This document shows positions 128 through 45,568 of a stretch of 45,568 nucleotides of DNA, piece by piece. A program made the position numbers and the translations under genes. The stretch lies in the IMG/VR virus record IMGVR_UViG_3300031418_000024; one strand, given 5' to 3'. Within the stretch, counting starts at the first letter, position 1. Every line of letters starts with the position of its first letter. This stretch comes from a virus. The notes under the pieces were generated by a model. That model made no database searches. It had not been told where the DNA came from and saw only the letters and a list, made by a program, of their open reading frames with translations.

Positions 128-1077
128 GGATCGAGCTGCGCATGGTCAATGGCGTAGCCCATGCACGCGTCTGGGTGGAGAACCTCAACCAGGATGAAAC
201 CGTCTATGCTCGCGGGCTGAGTGCCACTCAACTGACGCCGCTCGTTGCCAATGGTGTGTCACTCAACCGCCTGCCGTTCTTCTGGGCCGGTGCGAAGGAT
301 AACGACGCGACTGTTGACCAGGCTCCGCTGGCAGATATTGCTGCGCTGAATATCAAGCACTACTGCGCAGAGGCTGACGTTGCAGAGATTGCCCATGTCG
401 TGTGCCAGCCTACCCTGGTGCTGACCGGCCTGACGAAGACATGGGCAGATGACCACCTGAAGGAAGGGGTGCAGCTGGGCGCGACCACCGGCATTAAGCT
501 GGGCATCAACGGCACCACGCCGATGGCGGCTAACATCCTCCAGGCAGAGGAGCGCAACGCTTCAACCCTGCTGTGTGAGCGTCGTGAGCTGCAGATGGCG
601 AAGATGGGCGCGGCGCTGGTTGAGCGTGGCACGGCACCGAAGACCGCCACCGAAGCGGAGTATGACGCCAAAACGGATAACTCGATCCTGTCCCTGTGTG
701 TGGGCAACATGGAGCACTCGCTCAATGCCGCGCTGGAGCTTGCCGGTCAGTTTGCCGGTGGCGAGGCTACCGTTGAAATCAATAAGCGCTACACCGACCT
801 GACGATTGACAGCCAGGCTCTGGTCGCCATGATGAGCGGCGTTCAGAACGGAACAATCCGCCTGATCGACTTCATCAAATACCTGCAGGGCGCTGGCGTG
901 GTTGACGGTACTGAGAAGCCGGAAGACATTGAGACGGAGCTGCGCAATCAGGAGCCTCTGCCTAACATGATGGCGCTGGTTCAGGCCGGAATGCAGAAGG
1001 ATAACTCCGTGGATAAGGATGGGATAAGCGTGGATAAGGATGCGAACTCCGTGGATAAAGAGGAAAACGATGAATAA
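1..1077 (+). CDS. Portal protein, C-terminal part (continues from 44971-45568 across the circular junction; about 515 aa in total)
   Basis: Frame 1 is open from base 1 to the stop at 1075-1077 and in phase with the frame starting at GTG 44971. Lies directly after terL and before a gp7/Mu F-like gene. Confidence 0.8.
   Translation: MIEAPEIINWRVVDGVTTLVVFKIHDQLAGSVDDFGDLPVTKWIELRMVNGVAHARVWVENLNQDETVYARGLSATQLTPLVANGVSLNRLPFFWAGAKDNDATVDQAPLADIAALNIKHYCAEADVAEIAHVVCQPTLVLTGLTKTWADDHLKEGVQLGATTGIKLGINGTTPMAANILQAEERNASTLLCERRELQMAKMGAALVERGTAPKTATEAEYDAKTDNSILSLCVGNMEHSLNAALELAGQFAGGEATVEINKRYTDLTIDSQALVAMMSGVQNGTIRLIDFIKYLQGAGVVDGTEKPEDIETELRNQEPLPNMMALVQAGMQKDNSVDKDGISVDKDANSVDKEENDE
1000..1062 (+). 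repeat. Three in-frame 21-bp tandem repeats at the portal 3' end (DNSVDKD / GISVDKD / ANSVDKE)
   Basis: gataactccgtggataaggat / gggataagcgtggataaggat / gcgaactccgtggataaagag read directly. Confidence 0.9.
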
Positions 1078-2176
1078 GACCGTTAACCAACGGTTGGCAG
1101 ATGAGGCGGTCAAGCGCCGCCTCTACGTCCACCGATTCGCCAACAAGCTTGCCCAGGATGCCCGCTCCCGCATCCTGAAGGCACGACTGGCCCTTGCCAT
1201 GAATGTCCAGCAGGCTCTGGAGATTGGCCCACCCAGTCCGGCAGCGTTCAACCAGACACACCTGGTGAAGATGATCCGCAGCATGACTGATCAGGTTATG
1301 GATCTGTACGAAGCCGTGACCAGTGATGCGCAGAAGAGCCTGGCGGCATACACGGCCGTTGAGGTAGCGGCGCAAAACAGCATGTTCACCAGCCTAATAC
1401 CGGAAGCCATTCAGCAGTTCTTCCCGGTGACTAAGCTGACCACGTCACAGGTGGTGTCAGCTGCGCTGGAGCGTCCATTCCAGGGTGCTCTGCTGAAGAA
1501 CTGGGCAGAGAAGCAGGCTCAGTCAGCCATGGGGGCCATTGCCAGCCAGATCCAGACCGGTTACACGCTGGGCGAGTCACACGACCAGATCGTGAAGCGC
1601 GTCACCGGGACGAAGGATGACCCTGGCCTGCTCAATCGCCTGGCTAACGATGCGGGAAACGTCGTAAAGACGGCTGTAGGACATTATCAGGCCACGGCGA
1701 CAGAGCTGATGGGTGAGGCCAACAAAGACATCCTGAAGGCTCAGGAGTGGCTCTCAACGCTCGACAGCCACACATCCACCCTGTGCCAGGTGCGCGACAA
1801 GAAGCTATACACGCTGGACAAGAACCCGAAGCCCATCAAACACGCGATCCCATGGGGTGCCGGACCGGGCAAACTTCACTTCTGCTGTCGCTCCACCCGC
1901 ACCTTCGTGACGAAGTCATGGCAGGAGCTGGGGATTGATTCGGGGGAGATGGATGCAGGAACCAGGGCAAGCATGAATGGACAGGTCGCCGCTGACATGT
2001 CATTCACGCAATGGGTCGCTCGTCAGGAACCACATGTCGTTTACGATTTGTACGGCCCACAAAGGGGTCAGTTGATCCTGGATGGCAAGCTGAAACCGGA
2101 TGACATGTTCAACGACAAAGGGGAGTTTTTGACCCTCGATCAGCTGGCTCAAAAGGGAATGATAAAGGCATCATAA
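1070..2176 (+). CDS. Head morphogenesis / minor head protein (SPP1 gp7 - Mu F-like)
   Basis: ATG 1070 preceded by aggaaaa and overlapping the portal stop. C-terminal LHFCCRSTR-type motif and position after portal are typical of the family. Confidence 0.75.
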   Translation: MNKTVNQRLADEAVKRRLYVHRFANKLAQDARSRILKARLALAMNVQQALEIGPPSPAAFNQTHLVKMIRSMTDQVMDLYEAVTSDAQKSLAAYTAVEVAAQNSMFTSLIPEAIQQFFPVTKLTTSQVVSAALERPFQGALLKNWAEKQAQSAMGAIASQIQTGYTLGESHDQIVKRVTGTKDDPGLLNRLANDAGNVVKTAVGHYQATATELMGEANKDILKAQEWLSTLDSHTSTLCQVRDKKLYTLDKNPKPIKHAIPWGAGPGKLHFCCRSTRTFVTKSWQELGIDSGEMDAGTRASMNGQVAADMSFTQWVARQEPHVVYDLYGPQRGQLILDGKLKPDDMFNDKGEFLTLDQLAQKGMIKAS

Positions 2177-2323: not shown

Positions 2324-2722
2324 TCACCTGACAGAGGCAAGCGGCGACAAATCCAGCTCAAGATTCATGGGCTGAATTTTCCCCGACAGGATGTCAAATC
2401 CCCTGCGCTCAAGTTCAGCCATCGCCATGGCTTTCACGGATGATTTAACCATCCTCATCCCGGCGATTGCCGCCAGTGAATGCCAGTCGTTGAATGTGTC
2501 AGTTTCAAGCGCCAGCAGTATGTGAGCCTTCACGTGGTCATTACGGTTTAGCCACACCAGATTTGACCTGCTATTCCCCTCCTCGTCTTTACGCTTGCCT
2601 GGGTACATCCAGATGGGCCTGATGTGGTGCTTATCAAACCCAACGCGCTTGACCCATGGCGCATACACTGACGGCCTGCCGTGTTTTATTAACTTCTCCA
2701 GAATGAACTCAGCGTAAGACAT
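2324..2722 (-). CDS. HNH endonuclease (free-standing, homing-endonuclease-like), antisense to the morphogenesis genes
   Basis: Motifs DKHHIRPIWMYP ... NLVWLNRNDHVKAH (HNH core); RBS gaggg before the ATG; visibly AT-richer than neighbours. Confidence 0.8.
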   Translation of the reverse strand: MSYAEFILEKLIKHGRPSVYAPWVKRVGFDKHHIRPIWMYPGKRKDEEGNSRSNLVWLNRNDHVKAHILLALETDTFNDWHSLAAIAGMRMVKSSVKAMAMAELERRGFDILSGKIQPMNLELDLSPLASVR

Positions 2723-2795
2723 GCATTAACCCTCGTTAATATGATTGAGGTATCATAATATGCTGATCGAGCGGTTCCGTCAACGCCGCCAGTGA

Positions 2796-3584: not shown

Positions 3585-3605
3585 ATTAATCGAGGGTTGA
3601 AAAAT

Positions 3606-4736
3606 ATGTCCCGAATTGTGTTTGATGCGCAAATCTCCACCGCTGCAACCAAAGTGCTGGAAGCAAACCTGAACGTGTTCAACACGGCATCCCGCGGCGC
3701 TATCGTTGCCGGTGCTGGTGACTTCCTTGGTGACTACCTTGAGCGCGTCATGTGGGCAGCCCAGCAGATGGTCAGCCGTCGTAACGCATACGGCTCTGGC
3801 AAGGTGTCAGCGACCGAGCTGCAGCAGATCCTTGAACGTGCCGTGAAAGTGGACCAGCGTGTTGGGCCGTTGAAAGTGACCGGCGCAATCATGGACCGCC
3901 TGGGCAAGAACAACCAGGAAGCGGCGGCAGTGATGGGCACCCAAGTAGCTCAGCAGCTGATCCAGGACCAGATTGACGTGGTAGTTGGTACTCTGCTGGC
4001 GGCTACGCCTGCTGAACTGACCTACGACTTCTCGTCCATCGCTACCGGCATTCCGAACCTGAAGCAGATTGCGAAATCCCTGCGTCTGATGGGTGATGCC
4101 TACCAGCGTATCGTGGTCCAGATCATGTCTGGTGCCAGCTACAACGACATGATCGTTGAGGGCAACATGGGGAACATGGAAAAACTGTTCACCATTGACA
4201 ACCTGATGATCATGCAGTCGCCGCTGGGTCAGACGTTCCTGGTGACCGATGCCATGGGCCTCGACACCATCGAAGGCACTGGCGCAGATGCGAAGTCAAA
4301 ACAGCGCGTGCTGTCTCTGCAGGCCGGTGCTGCCGTGGTGCAGACTAACCCGATGGTCATGCGTACTCAGGACATTCTGGGTGAAGAGAACCTCGCTACC
4401 CTGATCCAGGGTGAGACTCACTTCAACCTGGGCCTGAAAGGCTACGCCTATGTCGGCAAGTCGAATGCGCTGGGTCTGGGTGAGAAAGCAACCTCTCCGA
4501 CCCCGGCTACTGAGCAGACCGACAACACCACCGCCATCACCGCCGATCCTGGCACAGCTGGCACCTCTACATCTGCCGGTTCAGCGTCTCCGGTTAACGC
4601 TACCCTGTTCGCTAAAACGAGCTGGAAAGTGGCAGACCCGCGCTGGAAACCAACCGCAGGCAAACCACTGACTGGTGGCACCCTGGACGCTGCGAAAGGT
4701 CTGGCCGGTGTAGTGGCAGTCTTCGGCGACAAATAA
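3606..4736 (+). CDS. Major capsid protein
   Basis: 376 aa, follows the scaffold gene and is followed by a strong terminator; composition typical of siphovirus capsid proteins. The HK97-type fold is assumed from gene context, not shown by sequence. Carries a low-complexity Thr/Ser/Ala/Pro-rich C-terminal segment. Confidence 0.75.
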   Translation: MSRIVFDAQISTAATKVLEANLNVFNTASRGAIVAGAGDFLGDYLERVMWAAQQMVSRRNAYGSGKVSATELQQILERAVKVDQRVGPLKVTGAIMDRLGKNNQEAAAVMGTQVAQQLIQDQIDVVVGTLLAATPAELTYDFSSIATGIPNLKQIAKSLRLMGDAYQRIVVQIMSGASYNDMIVEGNMGNMEKLFTIDNLMIMQSPLGQTFLVTDAMGLDTIEGTGADAKSKQRVLSLQAGAAVVQTNPMVMRTQDILGEENLATLIQGETHFNLGLKGYAYVGKSNALGLGEKATSPTPATEQTDNTTAITADPGTAGTSTSAGSASPVNATLFAKTSWKVADPRWKPTAGKPLTGGTLDAAKGLAGVVAVFGDK

Positions 4737-4754
4737 GCGCTGATCTGAACGAAA

Positions 4755-4782
4755 AGGCTCGCTACGGCGGGCCTTTTTTTTG
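4755..4782 (+). terminator. Rho-independent terminator after the major capsid gene
   Basis: GGCTCGC-tacg-GCGGGCC stem followed by T8. Confidence 0.8.
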
Positions 4783-8213: not shown

Positions 8214-10802
8214 ATGGCTGAAGATGTAGCAAACCTATCGCTAAAGGTTGACACACAGGAGGTACAGGAAGCCAGTAGCGCGCTGGGCTTCTTCAAAGAC
8301 AAGGCCATCGGCGGCGCAAAGGCCGCTACTGAGTTCAGCCAGTCAGCTGGATCGATGTCTGACCGTATCAAAGACACTGTCGCCTCACTGGAGAGGCAGG
8401 AAGCCAGCATGGGCAAGCTGGGCAACACCATCGGCCAGCAGGGCAACCAGTACCGGAACCTTACCATCAGCCAGGGCCAGTACACAAACGCCGTGCGCAT
8501 GCTGCCCGCGCAGATGTCCGATATCGCTACCCAGCTCCAGATGGGCACGTCTCCATTCACTATCCTTGTCCAGCAGGGCGGACAGATTAAAGACTCATTT
8601 GGCGGTGTGCAGAACACCCTGAAAGCCTTTGCCGCCACCCTGTCGCCAGCCATCATCGGCGCAACCGCACTGGGTGTCGCACTGGCCGGTATCGGTTATA
8701 GCGCATACTCAGTCAGCGAGCGATTTGATGCGGTTAACAAGGCCATCATTGAGACGGGCGGCGTAGGATTTAAGAGCGCGGCAGATCTTGAGGCGGCAGC
8801 GCAGCGCATCTCAACTGCAACCGGCGACTCGATCCACTCTGTAACCGACCTGCTCGTCAAAATGCAGGAGTCAGGGAAGTACACGACAGAGACGATTAAC
8901 CAGAGCGCTGAGGCAATTTCAAAGTGGCAAGAGGCTTTCGGCGACTCTGACAAGCTCCAGAAGGGTCTGGAGAAGATGACCACTGACCCGGTCAAGGGTC
9001 TGCAGCAGCTTAACGAAACTTTCCACTTCGTCACCCCAACCGTTATGGCACACGTCGCCGCCCTGCAGAAGGCTGGCAAGGATTCCGAGGCCTGGGGCGT
9101 GGCAATGGATGCTGCGATGGGAATGGTCAACACCAGGACTGAGCAGATGAAGGGCCAGGTGGGTGAGATGGAGGCGGCCTGGAAGACGCTTAAAACCGTT
9201 TCAATTGAGGTTGCTGACGGCCTGGGCAAGGCGCTTATCGGCATGGGCGATCAGGTTGTTGCCGGGTTTAACCTCCTGCTGCAGTCGGTAAAAGGCATCC
9301 TGCTGGATATTGACAGGCTGGCGCGCGAGGCTGTTAACGGCACCATCGACCAGATCCGCAAACTCCCCGGCATGTCTGAAGCATTCAGTGATGCCTACAC
9401 CCAGAACCAGGATCTGATTAAGAAGGGCGACCAGCAGATCATCGCTAACCGCAAAGAGATTCTGCGACTGCAGCAGGTGCTGAATAAAACAGCTGAACAG
9501 CAATACGACGACACACACAAGGGCGTTACCGGCACGGGCGGCACCACGGCGGAAGAGGATCGCCAGACGAAGAAAATTGCCGACCAGATGAATAAGAAGA
9601 CGAAGGCCGCTAAAGCATTCCAGGAGGACGCGGGCCAGAAACTTCTCGATCAGCTGAACATGCAGACTGACCAGCTTAAGCAGCAGGAGTACATCTACAA
9701 AAACCATCTGACCGATGGCAAAGCGATGACTCAGGAGCAGCAGAAGTACGTAGCACTGCTGGCACAGATTAACGTGCTGGAGCAGCGGCAGCAGAGCGGG
9801 CAACGTCTGACCAATGAGCAGAAGCAGGTGCTGGCGGTCAAAGAGCAGGCGCTGGCGATTGCCAAACGCAATGCGGATGAATCAGCCCAGCTGGACATCC
9901 TTAAGAAACAGTCAGAACAGCACCGCCAGATCAATGACGCCATTACGGAGATGATCGAGAAGCGCAAGATCGTTACTGACACCCAGGGCGAGTCAACCCG
10001 TGAGCAGGAGCGCGCACTTGAGCTGGCGCAGGCTGAGAACAAGCTGCGCCGCTCCGGTGCCAGTGAGGGTGACATCAAGCGCTACACGGATGAGGTCACC
10101 AAAGGATTCCAGCAGCAGGACGCGGCCAGAGATGACTGGTTCAATGGCCTGTCAACCGGCTGGAAGGATGCGGCAGAGACAGCGGCGGATGTGAATAAGC
10201 AGATGGCCCAGTTTGGGCAGTCAACCTTTACCGGGCTGACTGATACCCTGACCAACTTCTTCATGACTGGCAAAGATGGCTGGAAGGATTTCGCGAACAA
10301 CGCCATCCAGCAGATCATGCGCATCCTGACTAACTCCGCACTCTCTGACCTGACGAAGGCGTTTTCCAGCATGGGTGGAGCGTCCGGCATCATGGGAAGT
10401 ATCGGGAGCTTTTTCGCCAAAGGCGATGCGCTTTATGGCCCCGGCATTAAGGCGCTGTCGGGTGGCGTCTATGACCAGCCCACCCCGTTCACCTTCGCAG
10501 GGCGCACGGCGTTTGCAAAAGGTGGCGTACTGGGTGAGGCTGGCCCGGAGGCGGTTATGCCACTGACGCGTGGCGCTGATGGCAAGCTGGGCGTTAAGGC
10601 AACCAGTGGCAACGGATTTGGCAGCATCATCGTCAGCACGGATGCGACGGTGACCACACAGGGCGGCGGCGATGGCAATCAGAGTGGCGCGCAGCAGCTG
10701 GGATCGATGCTGTCAAAACAGATCGCAGACCAGACGCAATCAATCCTTCAACGCGCCATTGAACCAGGAGGCTTGATCTACCGCTTCACCAAAGGTGGTT
10801 GA
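8214..10802 (+). CDS. Tape measure protein
   Basis: 862 aa, coiled-coil-rich with hydrophobic segments; canonical position. Confidence 0.9.
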   Translation: MAEDVANLSLKVDTQEVQEASSALGFFKDKAIGGAKAATEFSQSAGSMSDRIKDTVASLERQEASMGKLGNTIGQQGNQYRNLTISQGQYTNAVRMLPAQMSDIATQLQMGTSPFTILVQQGGQIKDSFGGVQNTLKAFAATLSPAIIGATALGVALAGIGYSAYSVSERFDAVNKAIIETGGVGFKSAADLEAAAQRISTATGDSIHSVTDLLVKMQESGKYTTETINQSAEAISKWQEAFGDSDKLQKGLEKMTTDPVKGLQQLNETFHFVTPTVMAHVAALQKAGKDSEAWGVAMDAAMGMVNTRTEQMKGQVGEMEAAWKTLKTVSIEVADGLGKALIGMGDQVVAGFNLLLQSVKGILLDIDRLAREAVNGTIDQIRKLPGMSEAFSDAYTQNQDLIKKGDQQIIANRKEILRLQQVLNKTAEQQYDDTHKGVTGTGGTTAEEDRQTKKIADQMNKKTKAAKAFQEDAGQKLLDQLNMQTDQLKQQEYIYKNHLTDGKAMTQEQQKYVALLAQINVLEQRQQSGQRLTNEQKQVLAVKEQALAIAKRNADESAQLDILKKQSEQHRQINDAITEMIEKRKIVTDTQGESTREQERALELAQAENKLRRSGASEGDIKRYTDEVTKGFQQQDAARDDWFNGLSTGWKDAAETAADVNKQMAQFGQSTFTGLTDTLTNFFMTGKDGWKDFANNAIQQIMRILTNSALSDLTKAFSSMGGASGIMGSIGSFFAKGDALYGPGIKALSGGVYDQPTPFTFAGRTAFAKGGVLGEAGPEAVMPLTRGADGKLGVKATSGNGFGSIIVSTDATVTTQGGGDGNQSGAQQLGSMLSKQIADQTQSILQRAIEPGGLIYRFTKGG

Positions 10803-10825
10803 TAATTACCCCGTCATGCTAAACT

Positions 10826-10853
10826 GCCCTCACATAAACGTGAGGGCTTTTTT
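10826..10853 (+). terminator. Rho-independent terminator after the tape measure gene; its 3' arm contains the Shine-Dalgarno of the next gene
   Basis: GCCCTCAC-ataaac-GTGAGGGC followed by T6, then ATG at 10854. Confidence 0.75.
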
Positions 10854-11216
10854 ATGGCTGAAGAATACCGCTGGCAGCTCCAGATCCAAAGTGGGGCGCA
10901 GACCAATACAAACGCTCGCGTGGCGACTAACCAGTTTGGCAATGGCTATGAGCAGGTGCAGGAAGATGGTATTAACTCTGCTATGCGCACTGTTGAGCTG
11001 GAGCACATCGGGCAGATCAATGACAAGGTGAATAACCCGAAGGATGTGGAAGCATTCCTCCGCCGCCACTACGTCAAGGCTTTCATCTTCACGCCTGCAC
11101 ACGGTGAAAAGGGATTGTTCCGCGTTAAGGCTGATTCCGTGAAGTACTCGCCGAAAGGACGTCTGGTAGGCATCGTCACCTGTACGCTCACTGAGGCTGT
11201 CGGGGTGCTCGCATGA
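10854..11216 (+). CDS. Minor tail protein (lambda gpM-like)
   Basis: 120 aa, first gene of an M-L-K-I-J-like series. Confidence 0.7.
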   Translation: MAEEYRWQLQIQSGAQTNTNARVATNQFGNGYEQVQEDGINSAMRTVELEHIGQINDKVNNPKDVEAFLRRHYVKAFIFTPAHGEKGLFRVKADSVKYSPKGRLVGIVTCTLTEAVGVLA

Positions 11217-38803: not shown

Positions 38804-41515
38804 ATGTCCAGCAACAAAATTCACGAATTTGCATTACCGAACGGCACACCAGCAGCCCCGCTGACCTGGGCGCATGGCCGCAAGGCGTTCAGTAATAAAT
38901 ATCAGAAACTGGTTCCGCAGCCTGAGTACCTTCCGCGCGATCACATGGAAGCCAGGGAACTGGCCCAGCTCGCAAAATGGCTGCCTTCGAACATATCTAT
39001 CCCGGCAGGCACGGACAAAGATCAGCGCGACCAGCTGAAGGCTGCGATCCCGCTCTGGTTCCCTGGCGGACTGAAGAAGAAAGGCGCAGATGGTGGTGAT
39101 AGCTGTCGCCGCCGCGCTGTGAATATGGCCCCCACAAAGCTGGTTGTATTCGACCTGGACGAGTGCAGCCCTGAAGCCTACAACGTCCTGACAATGGCCG
39201 TGCTGAACGGTTACAGCGCCATCAGCTACACCACGCCCAGCGACACACCAGAGGCCCGACGTGTCCGCCTGGTGATCGAGCTGGACCGTCATGTCCTGTC
39301 CGGGAAGGATGGCAAGGGGCTGGCCTCATCCCTGGTGATGCAGGAGCTGATGGAGTCGTGCAACGCCGAACCGGTGGCAGAAGAGCGCGGCGTATGGTTG
39401 CTGGCCGGGAAACGCGTGGCGTTCGACATGTCCGTTCACGACGCGGAGCAGTACCTGATCAGGCCGCACAAAGAATCTGAGGTGAATCTCTACCATGGTG
39501 ACCCTGTCAACCTGGACAGACTCGCCACCACCCAGTGGCAGCCAGAGGTGGCGGCGTGGGGAATCACCGGCAAGAAAGACAGCAGCGAGAAGGATGCCCG
39601 AGAGTACAGCCCGGAAGAGTGGGACAAGCTGGCGTCAGGAGCCAAAGATCTGGTAAGCCTGGCCGGTGAACGCGGCTGGGTGCAGGTCAATGACTCAACC
39701 ATCAACATCATCTGTCCGAACTGCAACGCGCACAGCAACCCGAACGAACCGGCAACCGGTGGCACAGTGATCAAGCTCCCGTCCGGCAGCAACCCGGAAC
39801 CGCGCTTCGTGTGCTCGCACAGTCACTGTCGCGATCTGAGCCGGAACCAGGCGCTGGCTTTCATCCTGATGCGCGCCCCCGGCGAGTGCGTGCCGGAGAT
39901 CAACAAAGTCCTGAGTGCTGACGAGATCCAGTCTATCGCCACCGGCATCACGCGGGAGCAGGCTGAGTACGCCAGCAACGGGATGGACTACCTGCGCGAA
40001 TGGCAGCGCCAGGGCGGCGTCAATGGTGAACTGACCATCCGCCAGATTAAGGACCGCAGGAAGTCGCTGGAGATGGACGACGACTACCTGAAATCGTTGC
40101 TCTCAGATGCGGCTGAATTCACCTATGACGGTCCGTCATTCGATGAGTATGGCGACGAGATCGAGCCAGAGATGACACCGGATGAAATGGAGCAAAAGCC
40201 GGATGATTATCACGATGAGCCAGAGGGTGAAGATGATACACCGCGTTTAACGGGCCTCAGCGCCATCGTGGCGGCCTCAAAGGCTAACGTTGAGCCTCCG
40301 GCATGGGTTATTGACCAGCTCGTCCCTACGCGCTCTGTAGGCTTTATTTACGGGGCATCCGGAACGAAGAAAACATTTGTCGCTCTGCACGCTGCTCTCT
40401 GCGTTGCTCAGGGCGTCCATTTCCTGGGCCTGGGTGTTCGTCCGGGTCACGTGTTTTACTTCAGCCCGGAAGACTTCGACGGCGTTGCAGAGCGTTATGC
40501 CGGATGGCGCGAGAAGTACAACAGCGGCAAGGTGCTCGAATCGTTCCACCTGACCCACCACCGCCTGCCCCTGGAGGACCACGACAAGATGCGCACACTG
40601 GCAGCAGGCTGGGTGCACAGCAACCCTGATGACCAGATAGGCCTGATCATCGTTGACACCCTGTCCAGTAACAACGCAGGCGCTAAGTCCGAGATGAACG
40701 AGAACGACAACAACCAGATGGCAAAGGTCATGGCAGGCGGCGAACTCCTGGCCCGTGCACTCAACTGCGCAGTGGTCATCCTGCACCACACCGGCAAGCC
40801 GAACCCGAACGATAAGTTCGAAAAGACCAGCATTCCCGATCCACGGGGAGCTTCAGCGCTGAAGAACAACGCCGGGTTCGCAATCTACATGAAGGCCGTC
40901 GCCCGCAGTCATGACGTCTCGCTTCACGTGAAGAAAGCGAAGGGTGTAGCAGCATTGCCGCCGCGCAGGCTTAAAACCGAATCAGTCCGCTTACCCGAGC
41001 GTATCGTTGAGGCCAAACGCAAAGCGGTGCAGGATCTGGTGCCGGTCCCGGAATCTGTCTCATCGAACCCGAACGCCTGGCAGCGCAGCGACAGCGCATT
41101 TACCCTGGCAATCATCAACGAGGTCTACCCGATGGAGACCGCCACCGCAGCAGAGCCAGAGGAAAGCCCCACCATGCAGCTGGCGAAATTCATCACCGGC
41201 CTGCTCTCCACCCACGGCAAGGATGGCCGGATGCTGAAGTCCGAGCTGCGCAACATGGCGAAGGAAACACGGCCGGAGGTATTCACCGACAAGAGCACCA
41301 AAGACAACGGCGGCAAGCGTGACCGGTCCGGCACCAACAACTTCAACAACGCCTATTCGACGGCATTGCGTGAGGCGCTGATTTCGGAAGGAGCTGGTGA
41401 CCTGGTCATCATCGGCGCAGCAGCCGCAAGACTGAAACCAATACGGGAAGAAAAGCCCCTGCCAACGGACTGGCATTTCACCGACGAGAACCAGGGTGAC
41501 GAGGAGGATTTTTAA
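38804..41515 (+). CDS. DNA primase/helicase (N-terminal primase-polymerase-like region, zinc-binding segment, C-terminal RecA-fold RepA/DnaB-like ATPase)
   Basis: CPNC...CSHSHC zinc motif; Walker A GASGTKKT; DTLSS and HHTGK helicase-type motifs; 903 aa. Confidence 0.8.
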   Translation: MSSNKIHEFALPNGTPAAPLTWAHGRKAFSNKYQKLVPQPEYLPRDHMEARELAQLAKWLPSNISIPAGTDKDQRDQLKAAIPLWFPGGLKKKGADGGDSCRRRAVNMAPTKLVVFDLDECSPEAYNVLTMAVLNGYSAISYTTPSDTPEARRVRLVIELDRHVLSGKDGKGLASSLVMQELMESCNAEPVAEERGVWLLAGKRVAFDMSVHDAEQYLIRPHKESEVNLYHGDPVNLDRLATTQWQPEVAAWGITGKKDSSEKDAREYSPEEWDKLASGAKDLVSLAGERGWVQVNDSTINIICPNCNAHSNPNEPATGGTVIKLPSGSNPEPRFVCSHSHCRDLSRNQALAFILMRAPGECVPEINKVLSADEIQSIATGITREQAEYASNGMDYLREWQRQGGVNGELTIRQIKDRRKSLEMDDDYLKSLLSDAAEFTYDGPSFDEYGDEIEPEMTPDEMEQKPDDYHDEPEGEDDTPRLTGLSAIVAASKANVEPPAWVIDQLVPTRSVGFIYGASGTKKTFVALHAALCVAQGVHFLGLGVRPGHVFYFSPEDFDGVAERYAGWREKYNSGKVLESFHLTHHRLPLEDHDKMRTLAAGWVHSNPDDQIGLIIVDTLSSNNAGAKSEMNENDNNQMAKVMAGGELLARALNCAVVILHHTGKPNPNDKFEKTSIPDPRGASALKNNAGFAIYMKAVARSHDVSLHVKKAKGVAALPPRRLKTESVRLPERIVEAKRKAVQDLVPVPESVSSNPNAWQRSDSAFTLAIINEVYPMETATAAEPEESPTMQLAKFITGLLSTHGKDGRMLKSELRNMAKETRPEVFTDKSTKDNGGKRDRSGTNNFNNAYSTALREALISEGAGDLVIIGAAAARLKPIREEKPLPTDWHFTDENQGDEEDF

Positions 41516-41534
41516 CTCTCAATCAGACCACTTA

Positions 41535-41655
41535 CTGGGATGGATTATTTGTTGTATATCCCTATAGGGATATATACAACAATAATCCATCCCTAAGTAC
41601 TGTGGTTACTGGGTTTTTACAACTTGTGGATTATTTCCCGATAATCCATTTTTAT
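41535..41655. repeat. Structured 121-bp element, copy B (57-bp quasi-palindrome 41537-41593 plus 24-bp palindrome 41626-41649), inverted relative to 2173-2293
   Basis: 107/121 identity with the reverse complement of copy A; the T41552:A41579 stem pair replaces G:C of copy A. Confidence 0.9.
41626..41655 (+). terminator. Candidate intrinsic terminator of the primase operon (GTGGATTAT-N6-ATAATCCAT followed by TTTTTAT)
   Basis: Hairpin plus U-tract on the plus strand, downstream of the stop at 41515. Confidence 0.45.
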
Positions 41656-41658
41656 AAC

Positions 41659-41688
41659 TTGCGCATCATGACCTTTCGGGGCCATAAT
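41659..41688 (+). promoter_or_regulatory. Sigma70-like promoter TTGCGC-18-CATAAT upstream of the packaging-module genes
   Basis: Hexamers read directly; CGTCGAA follows the -10 immediately. Confidence 0.4.
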
Positions 41689-42018: not shown

Positions 42019-42675
42019 ATGAGCAACCACCAAACCCATCTGGACGCCGCTAAGCAAGTCTGTCTCACCGCTCTGCATCACCTCGAACACGGCTGCGTCG
42101 TCGCTGTTAAGCAGCATTCTGGCTCTGTGGTCGATGAGCCTGGCGAGGCTGCGCGCATCATCCTGACGCTGGAGCTTGAGGCGCTGGATCTGCCTGCGAC
42201 CAATAACGACCACCAGAATGAAGGGACCGATATCCCACCAATCTATCTTGAGGGTTACCTTCTTGAGATGGCTAAACGCCGCGTTATGGATGATGTCATG
42301 GGGGCAAACCCGATATTTATGGGCGGGCGACCTATGCCCGAAGAGGCATTTGCCAGAAGAGATGATCTCGGTAAGAATTTCGGACCTAAGCCCATCACTG
42401 AGGACTGGTTCAAGAATGGGGGCAGGGCTGGCAGGCTGGCAACGGGAGAGGATAGCGGCGGGGAATCATTGCACGTCGTTAAGGATTCAGAAGGAGAGGG
42501 GGGGATGGTTATGGGTCCGCTTGAGTTTGGGGTGGTGAAGGTTCCTGCCCTCACCCGCGAAACTCTGACTACCATCGTCTACAGCGCTGGTTTGGGGCTG
42601 TTAACCAGTAAGCTGGACGCGATGATTGATAAAATCATGGAAGCTCAGCACAATGCACGTTGGGGTGATGAATGA
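42019..42675 (+). CDS. Hypothetical protein (218 aa)
   Basis: RBS gagga; no recognisable motif. Confidence 0.5.
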   Translation: MSNHQTHLDAAKQVCLTALHHLEHGCVVAVKQHSGSVVDEPGEAARIILTLELEALDLPATNNDHQNEGTDIPPIYLEGYLLEMAKRRVMDDVMGANPIFMGGRPMPEEAFARRDDLGKNFGPKPITEDWFKNGGRAGRLATGEDSGGESLHVVKDSEGEGGMVMGPLEFGVVKVPALTRETLTTIVYSAGLGLLTSKLDAMIDKIMEAQHNARWGDE

Positions 42676-42911
42676 TTATCGCCGCATACGCCTTCCTGTA
42701 CCTGCTAATCGGCTTCCTGGTGGCGTGCTTGGTTATGAGAGGAGAAGATGAGGATAAATCTGTATGGTTTATAGTGATCTGGTTGCTTTGGCCCTTGCAT
42801 ATTGCTGCCAGCGCCCTTGCTTTCACAATCAGAAAAATTAACCAATTCGCCGCCTTCGTCCTTCGCAACCTTAACCAATTCGCCGCCTTCATCCTTCGCA
42901 AATTGCGTTAA
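42672..42911 (+). CDS. Small membrane protein with a tandemly repeated C-terminus
   Basis: Two transmembrane segments; INQFAAFVLRN / LNQFAAFILRK encoded by a 33-bp tandem repeat. Confidence 0.5.
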   Translation: MIIAAYAFLYLLIGFLVACLVMRGEDEDKSVWFIVIWLLWPLHIAASALAFTIRKINQFAAFVLRNLNQFAAFILRKLR

Positions 42912-43569: not shown

Positions 43570-44959
43570 GGTCATGGAAATCCGCAAACAGATGCCGTTA
43601 CTTCCCCACCAGATGGAGCTGATGATGGACACCACCACCCAGATCCTGGGCATGTGCTCAGGGTTCGGTGGTGGTAAGTCATTCTCCGCCGCCCGTAAGG
43701 CTGTCCAGCTGCTGCTGCTCAACCCTGGCTGTGATGGCATCGTGACGGAGCCAACCTACCCGCTGCTGACCCAGATCATGGTTCCAGAGCTTAAGACGGC
43801 TCTGGAGGCGTTCGAGGTGCCTTACCGCTACAACAAGGTGGAGAATATCTTCTACTGCGTCGTGGAGGACCAGCCTACCCGTATCATCTGCGCGTCAATG
43901 GAGAACTACTCGCGCCTGATTGGTATCAACGCCGCCTGGATCGTATCCGACGAGTTCGACACCACGAAGCATGAGGTCGCTATTGAGGCGTTCCGCAAGC
44001 TGATCGGGCGTATCCGTCGCGGCAAGGTGCGCCAGTTCGTCATCGTGTCAACGCCGGAAGGCTACCGGGCCATGTACCAGATCTTTGTGCTGGAGAACAA
44101 CCCGCGCGATCCGAAGTACAAGGCAGGCCAGAAGCGCCTCATCAAGGCCCGCACCTATGACAACCACCATCTCCCGGCTGACTACATCGAACGAATGGAG
44201 TCACTCTATCCTGGTGCGCACATCAAAGCCTACCTGAACGGCGAGTTCACCAACCTCACCCAGGGTTCCATTTATCATGAGTTCAGCCGCGAGCTGAATA
44301 AGTGCGACACAGTGGTGCGCCCAGGCGAAGACCTGCACATCGGCCAGGACTTCAACGTCGGTAAACAGGCGTCGTGTGTGTGCGTGAAGCGTATTGTGAT
44401 GATGCCGGTTGCGGGCACGGCGTACTGGGACGAGCTAAGCAATTCAGTGCAGTGCGAGATGGAACCGGTGGAGCAGCTGCACGTAGTTGATGAGTTCTTT
44501 GGTCAGCTGGACACGAAGGCGACGATCAAGGCCATTCAGGATAAGTATCAGCCAGAGGGCAGCCAGGCGGGGGATGATAATTACCACACCATCCACATCT
44601 ACCCCGATGCATCAGGCCGCAACCGCAAGACGAACAACGCCAGCACCTCAGACATCGCTATGCTGGAGGAGGCTGGATTCTACGTCCATGCGGGTGCATC
44701 AAACCCGGCTGTGCAGGACCGCATCTTGTCCATGAATAGCCTGATCAACAATGCGCGCAATCTCCGCCGCCTACTTGTTAACCCTACCTGCGAGACTGTC
44801 ACCAACTGTCTGGAGCGCCAGGTATACAACGAGAAGACCGGAGAGCCTGAAAAGGGCAAGCACGACCACATGAATGACGCTCTGGGCTACGTGGTTAATA
44901 CCCTGTATCCTGTGCTCAAACCGATGCATGATGACGTTGATTTTGACATTTACGGATAA
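43562..44959 (+). CDS. terL: Terminase large subunit
   Basis: Walker A SGFGGGKS, Walker B VSDEFD, C-terminal nuclease-like DxxD/HDHMNDA motifs; ATG 43562 overlaps the terS stop. Confidence 0.9.
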   Translation: MSEVMEIRKQMPLLPHQMELMMDTTTQILGMCSGFGGGKSFSAARKAVQLLLLNPGCDGIVTEPTYPLLTQIMVPELKTALEAFEVPYRYNKVENIFYCVVEDQPTRIICASMENYSRLIGINAAWIVSDEFDTTKHEVAIEAFRKLIGRIRRGKVRQFVIVSTPEGYRAMYQIFVLENNPRDPKYKAGQKRLIKARTYDNHHLPADYIERMESLYPGAHIKAYLNGEFTNLTQGSIYHEFSRELNKCDTVVRPGEDLHIGQDFNVGKQASCVCVKRIVMMPVAGTAYWDELSNSVQCEMEPVEQLHVVDEFFGQLDTKATIKAIQDKYQPEGSQAGDDNYHTIHIYPDASGRNRKTNNASTSDIAMLEEAGFYVHAGASNPAVQDRILSMNSLINNARNLRRLLVNPTCETVTNCLERQVYNEKTGEPEKGKHDHMNDALGYVVNTLYPVLKPMHDDVDFDIYG

Positions 44960-44970
44960 GGGGCAGACCA

Positions 44971-45568
44971 GTGAACGAACGTTTGAACGTTGATACCCGC
45001 CATCCGTCCTATGACACCTATGCGCCCGAATGGGCGCTTATTCGTGACTGTGTGGACGGAGAGCGCGCGATTAAAGCCAGGGGTGAGCTTTACCTCCCAT
45101 TCCCTGGCGTGAACCCGAAAGACACACACAAGGCCGCTAAGCGCTATAAGAACTACAAGCACCGCGCCGCCTTCCTGAATGCCACCGGCCGCACGCTTGA
45201 CGCGCTGCTGGGTGTCGCGTTCGCGAAGCCGATTGCCGTTGCCGTCTCTGGCGCGCTCAGTCTGCTGGAGAACGACACGGACGGATCAGGGCAGTCACTG
45301 GCCCAGCTCTGCCGTAACTCGCTCACTCAGGTGCTGACGCGCGGGCGTATGGGCTATTGGGTGGACTACGAGACGCCAATGATGGAGGAGGACGGAACCC
45401 AGACAGCAGAGCAGGCGGCGGCCAACCGTGCGCGCGTGCGCCTGATCGAGGCTCCGGAAATCATCAACTGGCGCGTAGTGGACGGCGTCACGACCCTGGT
45501 CGTGTTCAAGATCCACGATCAGCTGGCCGGTTCAGTGGATGACTTCGGCGATCTGCCGGTGACGAAGT
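44971..45568 (+). CDS. Portal protein, N-terminal part (GTG start; runs off the window end and continues at base 1)
   Basis: aagggg RBS before GTG 44971; no stop in frame 1 to the window end; in phase with 1-1077. Confidence 0.8.
   Translation, partial: MNERLNVDTRHPSYDTYAPEWALIRDCVDGERAIKARGELYLPFPGVNPKDTHKAAKRYKNYKHRAAFLNATGRTLDALLGVAFAKPIAVAVSGALSLLENDTDGSGQSLAQLCRNSLTQVLTRGRMGYWVDYETPMMEEDGTQTAEQAAANRARVRLIEAPEIINWRVVDGVTTLVVFKIHDQLAGSVDDFGDLPVTK
45442..45568. repeat. Second copy of the window-terminal duplication (identical to 1-127)
   Basis: Exact identity on direct comparison. Confidence 0.95.

Follow-up and report, generated by a model that had tools for sequence, protein, structure and literature searches.

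What could explain two copies of one structured, non-coding sequence that lie in opposite orientation on either side of the packaging genes of a phage? The question is raised by IMG/VR virus record IMGVR_UViG_3300031418_000024, a DNA of 45,568 nucleotides (nt) that is referred to here, at its full length, as the window. An initial annotation had described the sequence at 41535-41655 (copy B) as an inverted counterpart of that at 2173-2293 (copy A) and had offered as functions paired transcriptional insulators or processing sites, recombination sequences at the boundaries of a module, or operator sites for a phage protein. The window, a circular phage assembly, has ~95% identity to Pantoea phage vB_PagS_MED16 (MED16). 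It carries an exact terminal direct repeat of 127 nt, and since positions 1-127 are duplicated at 45442-45568, this repeat is the overlap of the circular assembly and the true genome length is 45,441 bp. Copy B comes after the primase-helicase gene, ~10-11 nt past the stop codon at 41515; copy A is located between a gp7-like head-morphogenesis gene and a convergent HNH gene, with the scaffold gene beyond. On the circular map the two copies thus bracket ~6 kb containing small open reading frames (ORFs), terS, terL, the portal gene and the gp7-like gene.

We consider the chances about even that the element is a DNA-level palindrome of the origin-of-replication type, paired and co-evolving, with a terminator-like or promoter-like appendage. 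An origin-type function is preferred over a terminator or insulator because the element is an AT-rich hairpin palindrome with lineage-specific repeats, because it is positioned by the gene of a RepA-like primase-helicase, and because its copies undergo concerted evolution. We think of the element as a composite of an origin-type palindrome and a small transcription signal, and the readings weighed below are not mutually exclusive.

The two copies and their hairpins

In a repeat search the two copies were recovered as the arms (2173-2293/41535-41655) of the longest inverted repeat in the window, 121 nt long and 88% complementary. Our own count gave the same 107 matching positions out of 121 as the initial annotation, the longest identical runs being 26, 23, 18 and 17 nt. 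Window and MED16 contain exactly two copies each of the element. Eleven of the 14 differences between the copies were said to fall in the linkers, and the alignment places them there (7 in one linker and 4 in the other), with two more in the long stem and one past the short hairpin. The two stem differences are partners, as had been proposed: in the predicted stem T41552:A41579 of copy B takes the place of a G:C pair in copy A, a genuine compensation.

Homology and hairpin both reach past the 121-nt arms, copy B extending over ~41509-41680. Its long palindrome, or hairpin, occupies 41526-41607 and consists of outer stems (41526-41536 with 41594-41607) and an inner 57-nt palindrome (41537-41593) with the apex ATATCCCTATAGGGATAT at 41556-41573; folded as DNA it has a free energy of -26.2 kcal/mol on the plus strand and -26.4 kcal/mol on the minus strand (z = -8.4 and -8.9, respectively). 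The corresponding hairpin of copy A, inverted, is found at 2221-2302 (inner palindrome 2235-2291, apex 2255-2272) and folds with -27.2 kcal/mol on the minus strand and -25.6 kcal/mol on the plus strand (z = -8.3 and -9.0). Taken as whole elements, the two copies give folds on either strand that are much more stable than those of shuffled sequences (z about -6.8 to -9.0), and as DNA the two strands of the window copies fold equally well.

In each copy the first linker pairs with the left (upstream) flank, by which the hairpin is extended to ~37 bp. The pairs are GACCAC/GTGGTT and TACT/AGTA in copy B, and CTCC/GGAG and TGGCT/AGCCG in copy A. The cognate outer flanks add -11.7 kcal/mol in copy B, vs -4.7 ± 2.4 kcal/mol for shuffled flanks (p ~0.01), and -12.3 kcal/mol in copy A, while flanks exchanged between the copies add only -3.0 and -5.3 kcal/mol. 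Since cognate flanks pair and swapped flanks do so poorly, most of the linker differences between A and B are compensatory.

The element is an AT-rich island with 36-41% G+C (36% in the hairpin region of copy B) vs 55% for the genome. Beyond the long palindrome of copy B lie a conserved block, TGGGTTTTTA (41610-41619, plus strand), and a short palindrome, TGGATTATTTCCCGATAATCCA (41627-41648), followed by a T-tract (41649-41653). The short palindrome overlaps a promoter-like site, TTTACA-18-GATAAT, at 41616-41645 that scores 10/12. On the minus strand of copy A (2179-2217) the same parts are the block GGGTTTTT (2217-2210) and the short palindrome GTGGATTATTTCCCGATAATCCAC (2202-2179), whose T-tract overlaps the stop codon of the head-morphogenesis gene (2174-2176); a sigma-70-like TTTAAA-18-GATAAT overlaps this short palindrome as well.

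The two palindromes are related through a common half-site. Matches to TGGATTATT number 18 in the window vs 7 expected, and they are clustered in the two elements, where all of the exact matches are found. The half-site TGGATTAT is present four times per copy: the outer arms of the long palindrome hold one inverted pair of it and the short palindrome the other. GGGAT is also present four times per copy; the TGGATTAT and GGGAT sites of the element are arranged as inverted, not direct, repeats. The motif TGTGGATTA resembles, at 8/9 positions, what we take to be the consensus of the DnaA box.

Concerted change of the pair in a diverged relative

The contig L265 is syntenic with the window, and its primase-helicase (P0004) is 55% identical to that of the window. 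A diverged version of the element is present there, likewise as two inverted copies (arms of 70 nt, 83%) and at the same two places: one at 3595-3682 after the primase-helicase gene, and the other (copy A') at 10417-10505 after the head-morphogenesis gene. The bracketing of the packaging segment pointed out in the initial annotation is therefore repeated in a second genome, which supports a functional pair. The architecture common to window and L265 is long palindrome, GGGTTT and short palindrome, followed in the B copies by TTTTATAAC..GCATCAT, and the columns of ATTATTT, the CTATA apex, GGGTTT and CGATAAT do not vary in an alignment of the four copies.

Within a genome the copies are much alike (88.6% identity in the window, 75.6% in L265), whereas orthologous copies of window and L265 have just 46-51% identity and the flanking genes 65-74%. 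This is the pattern of concerted evolution. Short and long palindromes have a half-site in common that switches jointly, from TGGATTAT in the window to TAATTA(G/T) in L265, as is expected of binding sites that track a co-evolving protein. To that extent the suggestion that the copies are sites for a phage protein stays close to the data; a regulatory operator/promoter module, as one form of it, is a rival taken up below.

The L265 copies also differ from each other by a compensatory pair (T:A in B, G:C in A). The elements of window and L265, 46-51% identical, all fold as long hairpins (z about -4.4 to -9.0), and the claim that it is the dyad or structure, and not the primary sequence, on which selection acts is borne out by the compensatory pairs, the cognate outer stems and this comparison. 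For the covariation analysis on relatives that had been advised, RNAalifold, run on a MAFFT alignment of the four hairpins, returned 5 apex pairs only, since column-wise covariation is defeated by bulges and register shifts between window and L265. In copy A of L265 the short palindrome and T-tract are degenerate and the long palindrome is retained, so that conservation at that site concerns the long palindrome.

The HNH gene that adjoins copy A lies outside the conserved pair. A gp7-like head-morphogenesis gene (1040-2176, plus strand; MED16 gp04 annotation and ORF list) abuts copy A with its 3' end. On the other side an HNH/homing-endonuclease-like moron (2324-2722, minus strand) matches PHROG homing endonuclease and HNH families with E ~6e-6. 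The syntenic relatives Smarc2 and L265 have no HNH gene, and in L265 neither an HNH ORF nor a remnant was found; the pair in L265 is thus conserved independently of the HNH gene. Smarc2 has no second copy of the element either. In L265 the ~360 nt between copy A' and the scaffold gene (10530-10890) contain no convincing ORF and no HNH similarity. The 5' two thirds of the HNH gene (window 2400-2750) have only 70-82% identity to contig L254, in which the surroundings, copy A included, are 99-100% identical; such a divergent patch inside otherwise identical genomes indicates that the HNH moron was recently replaced or exchanged.

Elements and flanks are 100% identical to the window in contigs L254, L256 and L259. 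In blastn searches of both regions against GenBank phages the element itself was matched only in MED16. Neither the short palindrome nor the 24-mer apex was present in 185,579 bacterial and archaeal genomes scanned for exact matches, plasmids gave no match to the element, and the short palindrome had no exact match in IMG/VR. A host-derived repeat, which had been named as an outcome that would speak against a phage element, is therefore not what was found: the element is absent from the bacterial genomes and plasmids searched. With the whole window as query, Rfam 15 gave nothing at the gathering score, its sub-threshold hits being generic hairpins that resemble microRNA precursors. The gapped pattern TGGATTATT-N25-45-AATAATCCA had at least 119 matches in IMG/VR, all by chance, as their interiors are non-palindromic.

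The 24-mer GTATATCCCTATAGGGATATATAC, including its asymmetric extra AT, is the window's apex and recurs in L014 (352-369), L007 (11191-11208), L165 (4947-4964) and ~25 other marine contigs. There it is the centre of a different long palindrome with compensatory changes among contigs; in L165 a RepA-like primase-helicase is encoded 2.4 kb away. L265, which is far closer to the window than the marine contigs are, has a different apex. The identity of the 24-mer in the window and in unrelated marine phage contigs is probably convergence in a constrained, low-complexity palindrome.

Palindromes downstream of AAA_25 helicase genes

The gene upstream of copy B (38804-41515, plus strand) encodes a protein of 903 amino acids (aa), the candidate trans-acting partner of the element, which in MED16 is annotated as gp68, primase/replicative helicase. 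An AAA_25 (PF13481) helicase domain is found at residues 488-667 (E = 6e-31), and the N-terminal half matches PHROG primase and helicase-primase families. The sole sequence match in the PDB is the RepA helicase of plasmid RSF1010 (1g8y, E = 0.008); the assignment as a RepA-like helicase is based on this match and on the AAA_25 domain. Inspection of the N-terminal half by eye revealed VVFDLDE (residues 114-120) and CPNC...CSHSHC (304-342), which look like the DxD motif of an archaeo-eukaryotic primase and a zinc finger. At its C-terminal end the protein has an acidic tail, PTDWHFTDENQGDEEDF, that is kept in Lumpael, IME279 and L265 and resembles the C-terminal tails of T7 gp4 and single-stranded DNA-binding protein.

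In Lumpael, sortregn, IME279, Smarc2 and IME_EC2 (helicases 34-43% identical), a long palindrome lies directly 3' of the helicase gene. These palindromes have a centre composed of a pyrimidine run, T(T)ATA and a purine run, and short motifs (GGTAAC, GTTAAC, CAGGGAT) are repeated within and around them. A hairpin just 3' of a replication gene is thus seen in the window, L265, Lumpael, IME279, IME_EC2 and Smarc2, and also in L157, an AT-rich metagenomic contig with a primase ORF and an AAA_25 helicase ORF. In L157 the palindrome is located at 2745-2940, directly past the helicase stop, its 18-mer centre is the same as that of the window, and it is followed by ~7 AAAGTGTTGT(C)A iterons, an origin-like layout.

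The survey was extended to 76 IMG/VR loci whose helicases are only 25-35% identical to that of the window. Counted on both strands, hairpins that have a C-T(A/T)TA-G apex on a stem of 7 pairs or more numbered 11 in the 23.5 kb downstream of helicase stops vs 0 in the other 352 kb. The commonest 4-nt loops downstream of the helicases were TTTA (11) and TATA (6), which was not so elsewhere. The arms of the palindromes are unrelated between loci and often contain tandem pentamers (GTAAC, GCAAC, GACAT and others) that are mirrored in the opposite arm. Outer arms, which had played no part in selecting the hairpins, were compared in 15 family members: cognate arms gave -33.7 kcal/mol vs -20.3 kcal/mol for chimeras, with the cognate arms ahead in 14 of the 15 cases (p = 6e-5). 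An ungapped test of outer pairs across the family was not discriminating (0.305 observed vs 0.271 in the control), for which we blame bulges and register shifts. G-U wobble pairs were equally frequent on the two strands (35 vs 36); the lack of strand bias argues for a DNA-level dyad and not for an RNA made from one strand. None of the 11 family hairpins is followed by a T-tract.

Functions considered and neighbouring features

For an origin-type palindrome we infer binding, melting, priming (perhaps at GGGTTT) and fork arrest at the element, as follows. The half-sites of the long palindrome (TGGATTAT and GGGAT) would be recognised by the phage RepA-like primase-helicase or by a partner protein. 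Upon melting or supercoiling the palindrome would extrude as a hairpin or cruciform, on which the hexameric helicase could load, and the primase might then start synthesis, perhaps at the GGGTTT just 3' of the hairpin. The role of primary origin would fall to copy B, directly past the primase-helicase gene. A further binding site would be provided by copy A, either as a second origin that primes the other strand or as a protein-bound fork barrier, and as a barrier it could help the switch from theta to concatemer-forming replication, as proposed for oriR of phage SPP1. In addition, primase and HNH transcripts probably stop at the short palindrome with its T-tract, or else this palindrome may be an operator over the TTTACA/GATAAT promoter.

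Parallels exist for the parts of this scheme. In the SV40 core origin short repeats are placed symmetrically in a palindrome, where the initiator-helicase binds and assembles, and in phage P4 a second cis site (crr), kilobases away, is bound by the same primase-helicase. Unlike the window's protein these helicases belong to superfamily 3, there is no sequence relationship, and neither system has a conserved hairpin apex. The closest likeness in position is the origin of plasmid pRN1, a stem-loop of ~100 nt directly 3' of the primase-helicase gene and beside a terminator-like hairpin; there the integrity of the stem is required, a compensatory mutation rescues replication, and structure is conserved while sequence is not (PMC4234260). 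The pRN1 authors noted a similar stem-loop in Bordetella phage BIP-1, and P4 is also mentioned in their paper (PMC4234260). As in pRN1 and BIP-1, the window hairpin is found just 3' of a primase-helicase gene and is conserved in structure with diverged sequence. Unlike pRN1, the window has the element in two inverted copies, with recurring half-sites and the family-wide C-T(A/T)TA-G apex.

The paired arrangement can be compared with SPP1, which has two related origins: oriL is in the initiator gene, and oriR with three morons interrupts an otherwise conserved late gene order (PMC6316719, PMC3485210). According to a proposal for SPP1, replication forks stall at oriR and concatemer synthesis is thereby set off (PMC6316719, PMC3485210). 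Both phages are siphoviruses of the pac type (headful packaging) and have two related AT-rich sequences, one by the initiator gene and one in the late region with a moron; the window copies at 41.5 kb and 2.2 kb fit this initiator-gene-and-late-region layout, which is also that of L265. In SPP1 the interruption by oriR is reportedly placed between gene 7 and the scaffold gene, where the window has copy A and the HNH moron. SPP1 differs in that its origins are direct repeats with an AT-rich unwinding element, bound by the dedicated gp38, and not hairpin palindromes, in that it has a separate loader and a DnaB-type helicase, and in that its origins have no sequence similarity to the window element.

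RSF1010 has two hairpins, ssiA and ssiB, one on each strand; its RepA helicase exposes them to the plasmid primase, and the primer starts a few nt 3' of the hairpin (PMC8567376). The window likewise has a RepA-like helicase and hairpin sites that occur once per strand, inverted, and by analogy its GGGTTT block 3' of the hairpin may parallel the primer start. The ssi sites differ in being 40 nt long and side by side in one oriV, by the RepC iterons; compared with them the window copies are ~6 kb apart, much longer and unrelated in sequence.

Several observations weigh against an origin-type function. GC (guanine+cytosine) skew is uninformative and gives no origin signal. No DNA-binding domain was identified in the primase-helicase, and its C-terminal 234 aa have no Pfam, PHROG or PDB match; a homologue search with the C-terminal 244 aa gave no match, and the AlphaFold model of the whole protein, built on an alignment of 3 sequences, is unusable (predicted local distance difference test, 33). 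The helicase-downstream palindrome is missing in eiAU, Alakazam and PSKM, and only ~20-30% of the IMG/VR helicase loci carry it. The apex has the reverse orientation in IME279. Smarc2 and Lumpael have a single copy, and the second copy is hence dispensable for some such phages. The combination of a long hairpin with a short, terminator-like one where an operon ends is also compatible with a function in RNA, and the conservation of CGATAAT and TTTACA fits a promoter.

A function in RNA is unlikely in our estimate. The element would be a boundary between transcripts, in which the long hairpin is a ribonuclease III (RNase III) or stability site and the short hairpin with its U-tract an intrinsic terminator; it would end the primase operon at copy B and an antisense HNH transcript at copy A, where late transcription would read through in the opposite direction. 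The orientation pointed out in the initial annotation agrees with this: each copy is oriented with the incoming primase or HNH transcript, and the short hairpin with T-tract is terminator-like on that strand. On the minus strand the short hairpin of copy A passes a terminator scan (10 pairs, 3 of them G-C, tail TTTTATGATG); that of copy B, nearly identical and of the same design on the plus strand, was unreported by the scan. Stable hairpins at operon ends are also a property of intrinsic terminators and of phage RNase III sites such as the T7 R sites, the latter of which act as palindromic triggers of Lamassu as well (PMC11707656). The long stem of 27-37 bp would be an RNase III substrate if transcribed, and the RNA folds have z ~-7.

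As the main function of the long hairpin, however, insulation or processing of transcripts is not upheld. Intrinsic terminators have a G+C-rich stem of ~5-14 bp and a T/U-tract directly after it on the transcribed strand, whereas the long hairpin is AT-rich, has no adjacent T-tract and is 6-10 nt off the T-run. Its length of 27-37 bp and its half-sites further set it apart from terminators and T7 R sites. The palindromes downstream of the family helicases have no T-tracts, their arms are iteron-like, and their wobble pairs have no strand bias. L265 retains the long palindrome of copy A even though no convergent (HNH) gene lies upstream of this copy and its short hairpin and T-tract are degenerate. 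A plain terminator also gives no reason why copies within a genome should be 76-89% identical while orthologues drift to ~50%, and no Rfam family was matched.

Decidedly unlikely, in our view, is an operator/promoter module, i.e., a repressor or activator that acts on the TGGATTAT half-sites (two inverted pairs per copy) and controls the TTTACA-18-GATAAT promoter, thereby timing expression of the packaging operon and driving antisense RNA from copy A. Promoter-like sites do overlap the short palindrome in both copies, CGATAAT is invariant in all four copies of window and L265, and the half-sites co-vary between the phages; concerted evolution is typical of operator-repressor pairs, too. Downstream of its palindrome Smarc2 has, by eye, a promoter-like site TTTACA...TATAGT with a small palindrome in the spacer. 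Set against this, a promoter in copy A would send antisense transcripts into the genes for head morphogenesis, portal and terminase, the L265 -35 element and spacing are poor (by eye), and the half-site was not found at the other promoter regions of the genome. A dimeric regulator needs no hairpin-forming palindrome of 57-82 nt with compensatory changes, and the family-wide link with helicase genes is left unexplained. A T7-type promoter (CTATAGGGA) was rejected as well, the phage having no phage-type RNA polymerase and the specificity region being mismatched (by eye).

Use of the copies as a recombination substrate, for inversion or exchange of the 6-kb packaging module, or their origin as a mobile repeat (like a miniature inverted-repeat transposable element, or HNH-associated) is very improbable: the inverted repeats are identical over as many as 26 nt in a row, genes for a recombinase and an exonuclease are present in the phage, and the HNH moron by copy A was recently exchanged, but the pair has one and the same orientation in five independent assemblies (window, L254, L256, L259 and L265) and in MED16, the MED16 annotation contains no invertase or transposase, the element has just two copies, no match was found in the 185,579 genomes, in plasmids or in GenBank phages other than MED16, and the pair persists in L265 without an HNH gene. 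A protelomerase target, for which the 57-nt palindrome was considered, was rejected on the grounds that no protelomerase is annotated in MED16 and that both copies are internal.

Returning to the origin-type palindrome, we propose tentatively, and with some leaning against it, that phages with an AAA_25 primase-helicase share an undescribed origin design, consisting of a downstream palindrome, specificity repeats in its arms and a near-universal C-T(A/T)TA-G apex, of which the MED16/L265 clade keeps a co-evolving inverted pair on either side of the packaging genes, with copy A in the role of SPP1 oriR, as a second priming site or programmed fork barrier, coupling the concatemer switch to headful packaging. 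Origins have been mapped in very few phages beyond the classic models, and annotation pipelines ignore them. If the proposal is true, it provides a rule for finding origins, i.e., the stop codon of an AAA_25 helicase gene followed by a long palindrome with a C-T(A/T)TA-G apex, that applies to many phages and metagenomic contigs. It would also provide a second natural phage genome with two origins of the SPP1 kind, from a Gram-negative host, in which the switch from circle-to-circle to concatemeric replication could be tested. On the practical side, cloned origins can interfere with phage growth. Long palindromes are known to trigger SbcCD. Hairpin-sensing defences such as Lamassu are triggered by them, too (PMC11707656).

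In the MED16 record the hypothetical genes gp69 and gp70 (44758-44859 and 44865-45011) and gp05 (4588-4764) overlie the palindromes of copy B and copy A, respectively; they are probably not real genes. The element is unmentioned in the MED16 paper. A second repeated non-coding element is present on the minus strand in the early region of the window (35891-35976/37443-37510), where a 68-nt direct repeat (71%) and 42-nt inverted arms both hold the palindrome CATAATATTATG; these may be operators or promoters. Just upstream of terS, a tandem 33-nt repeat (42838-42901; 31/33 nt aligned, 97% identity) within a 79-aa ORF (42672-42911) may be involved in recognition of the packaging site or may simply be a coding repeat. 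Finally, paired direct repeats ~440 nt apart (30341-30385/30779-30823 and 30481-30506/30934-30959) are accounted for by two tandem paralogous small genes, which correspond to gp39 and gp40 of MED16.

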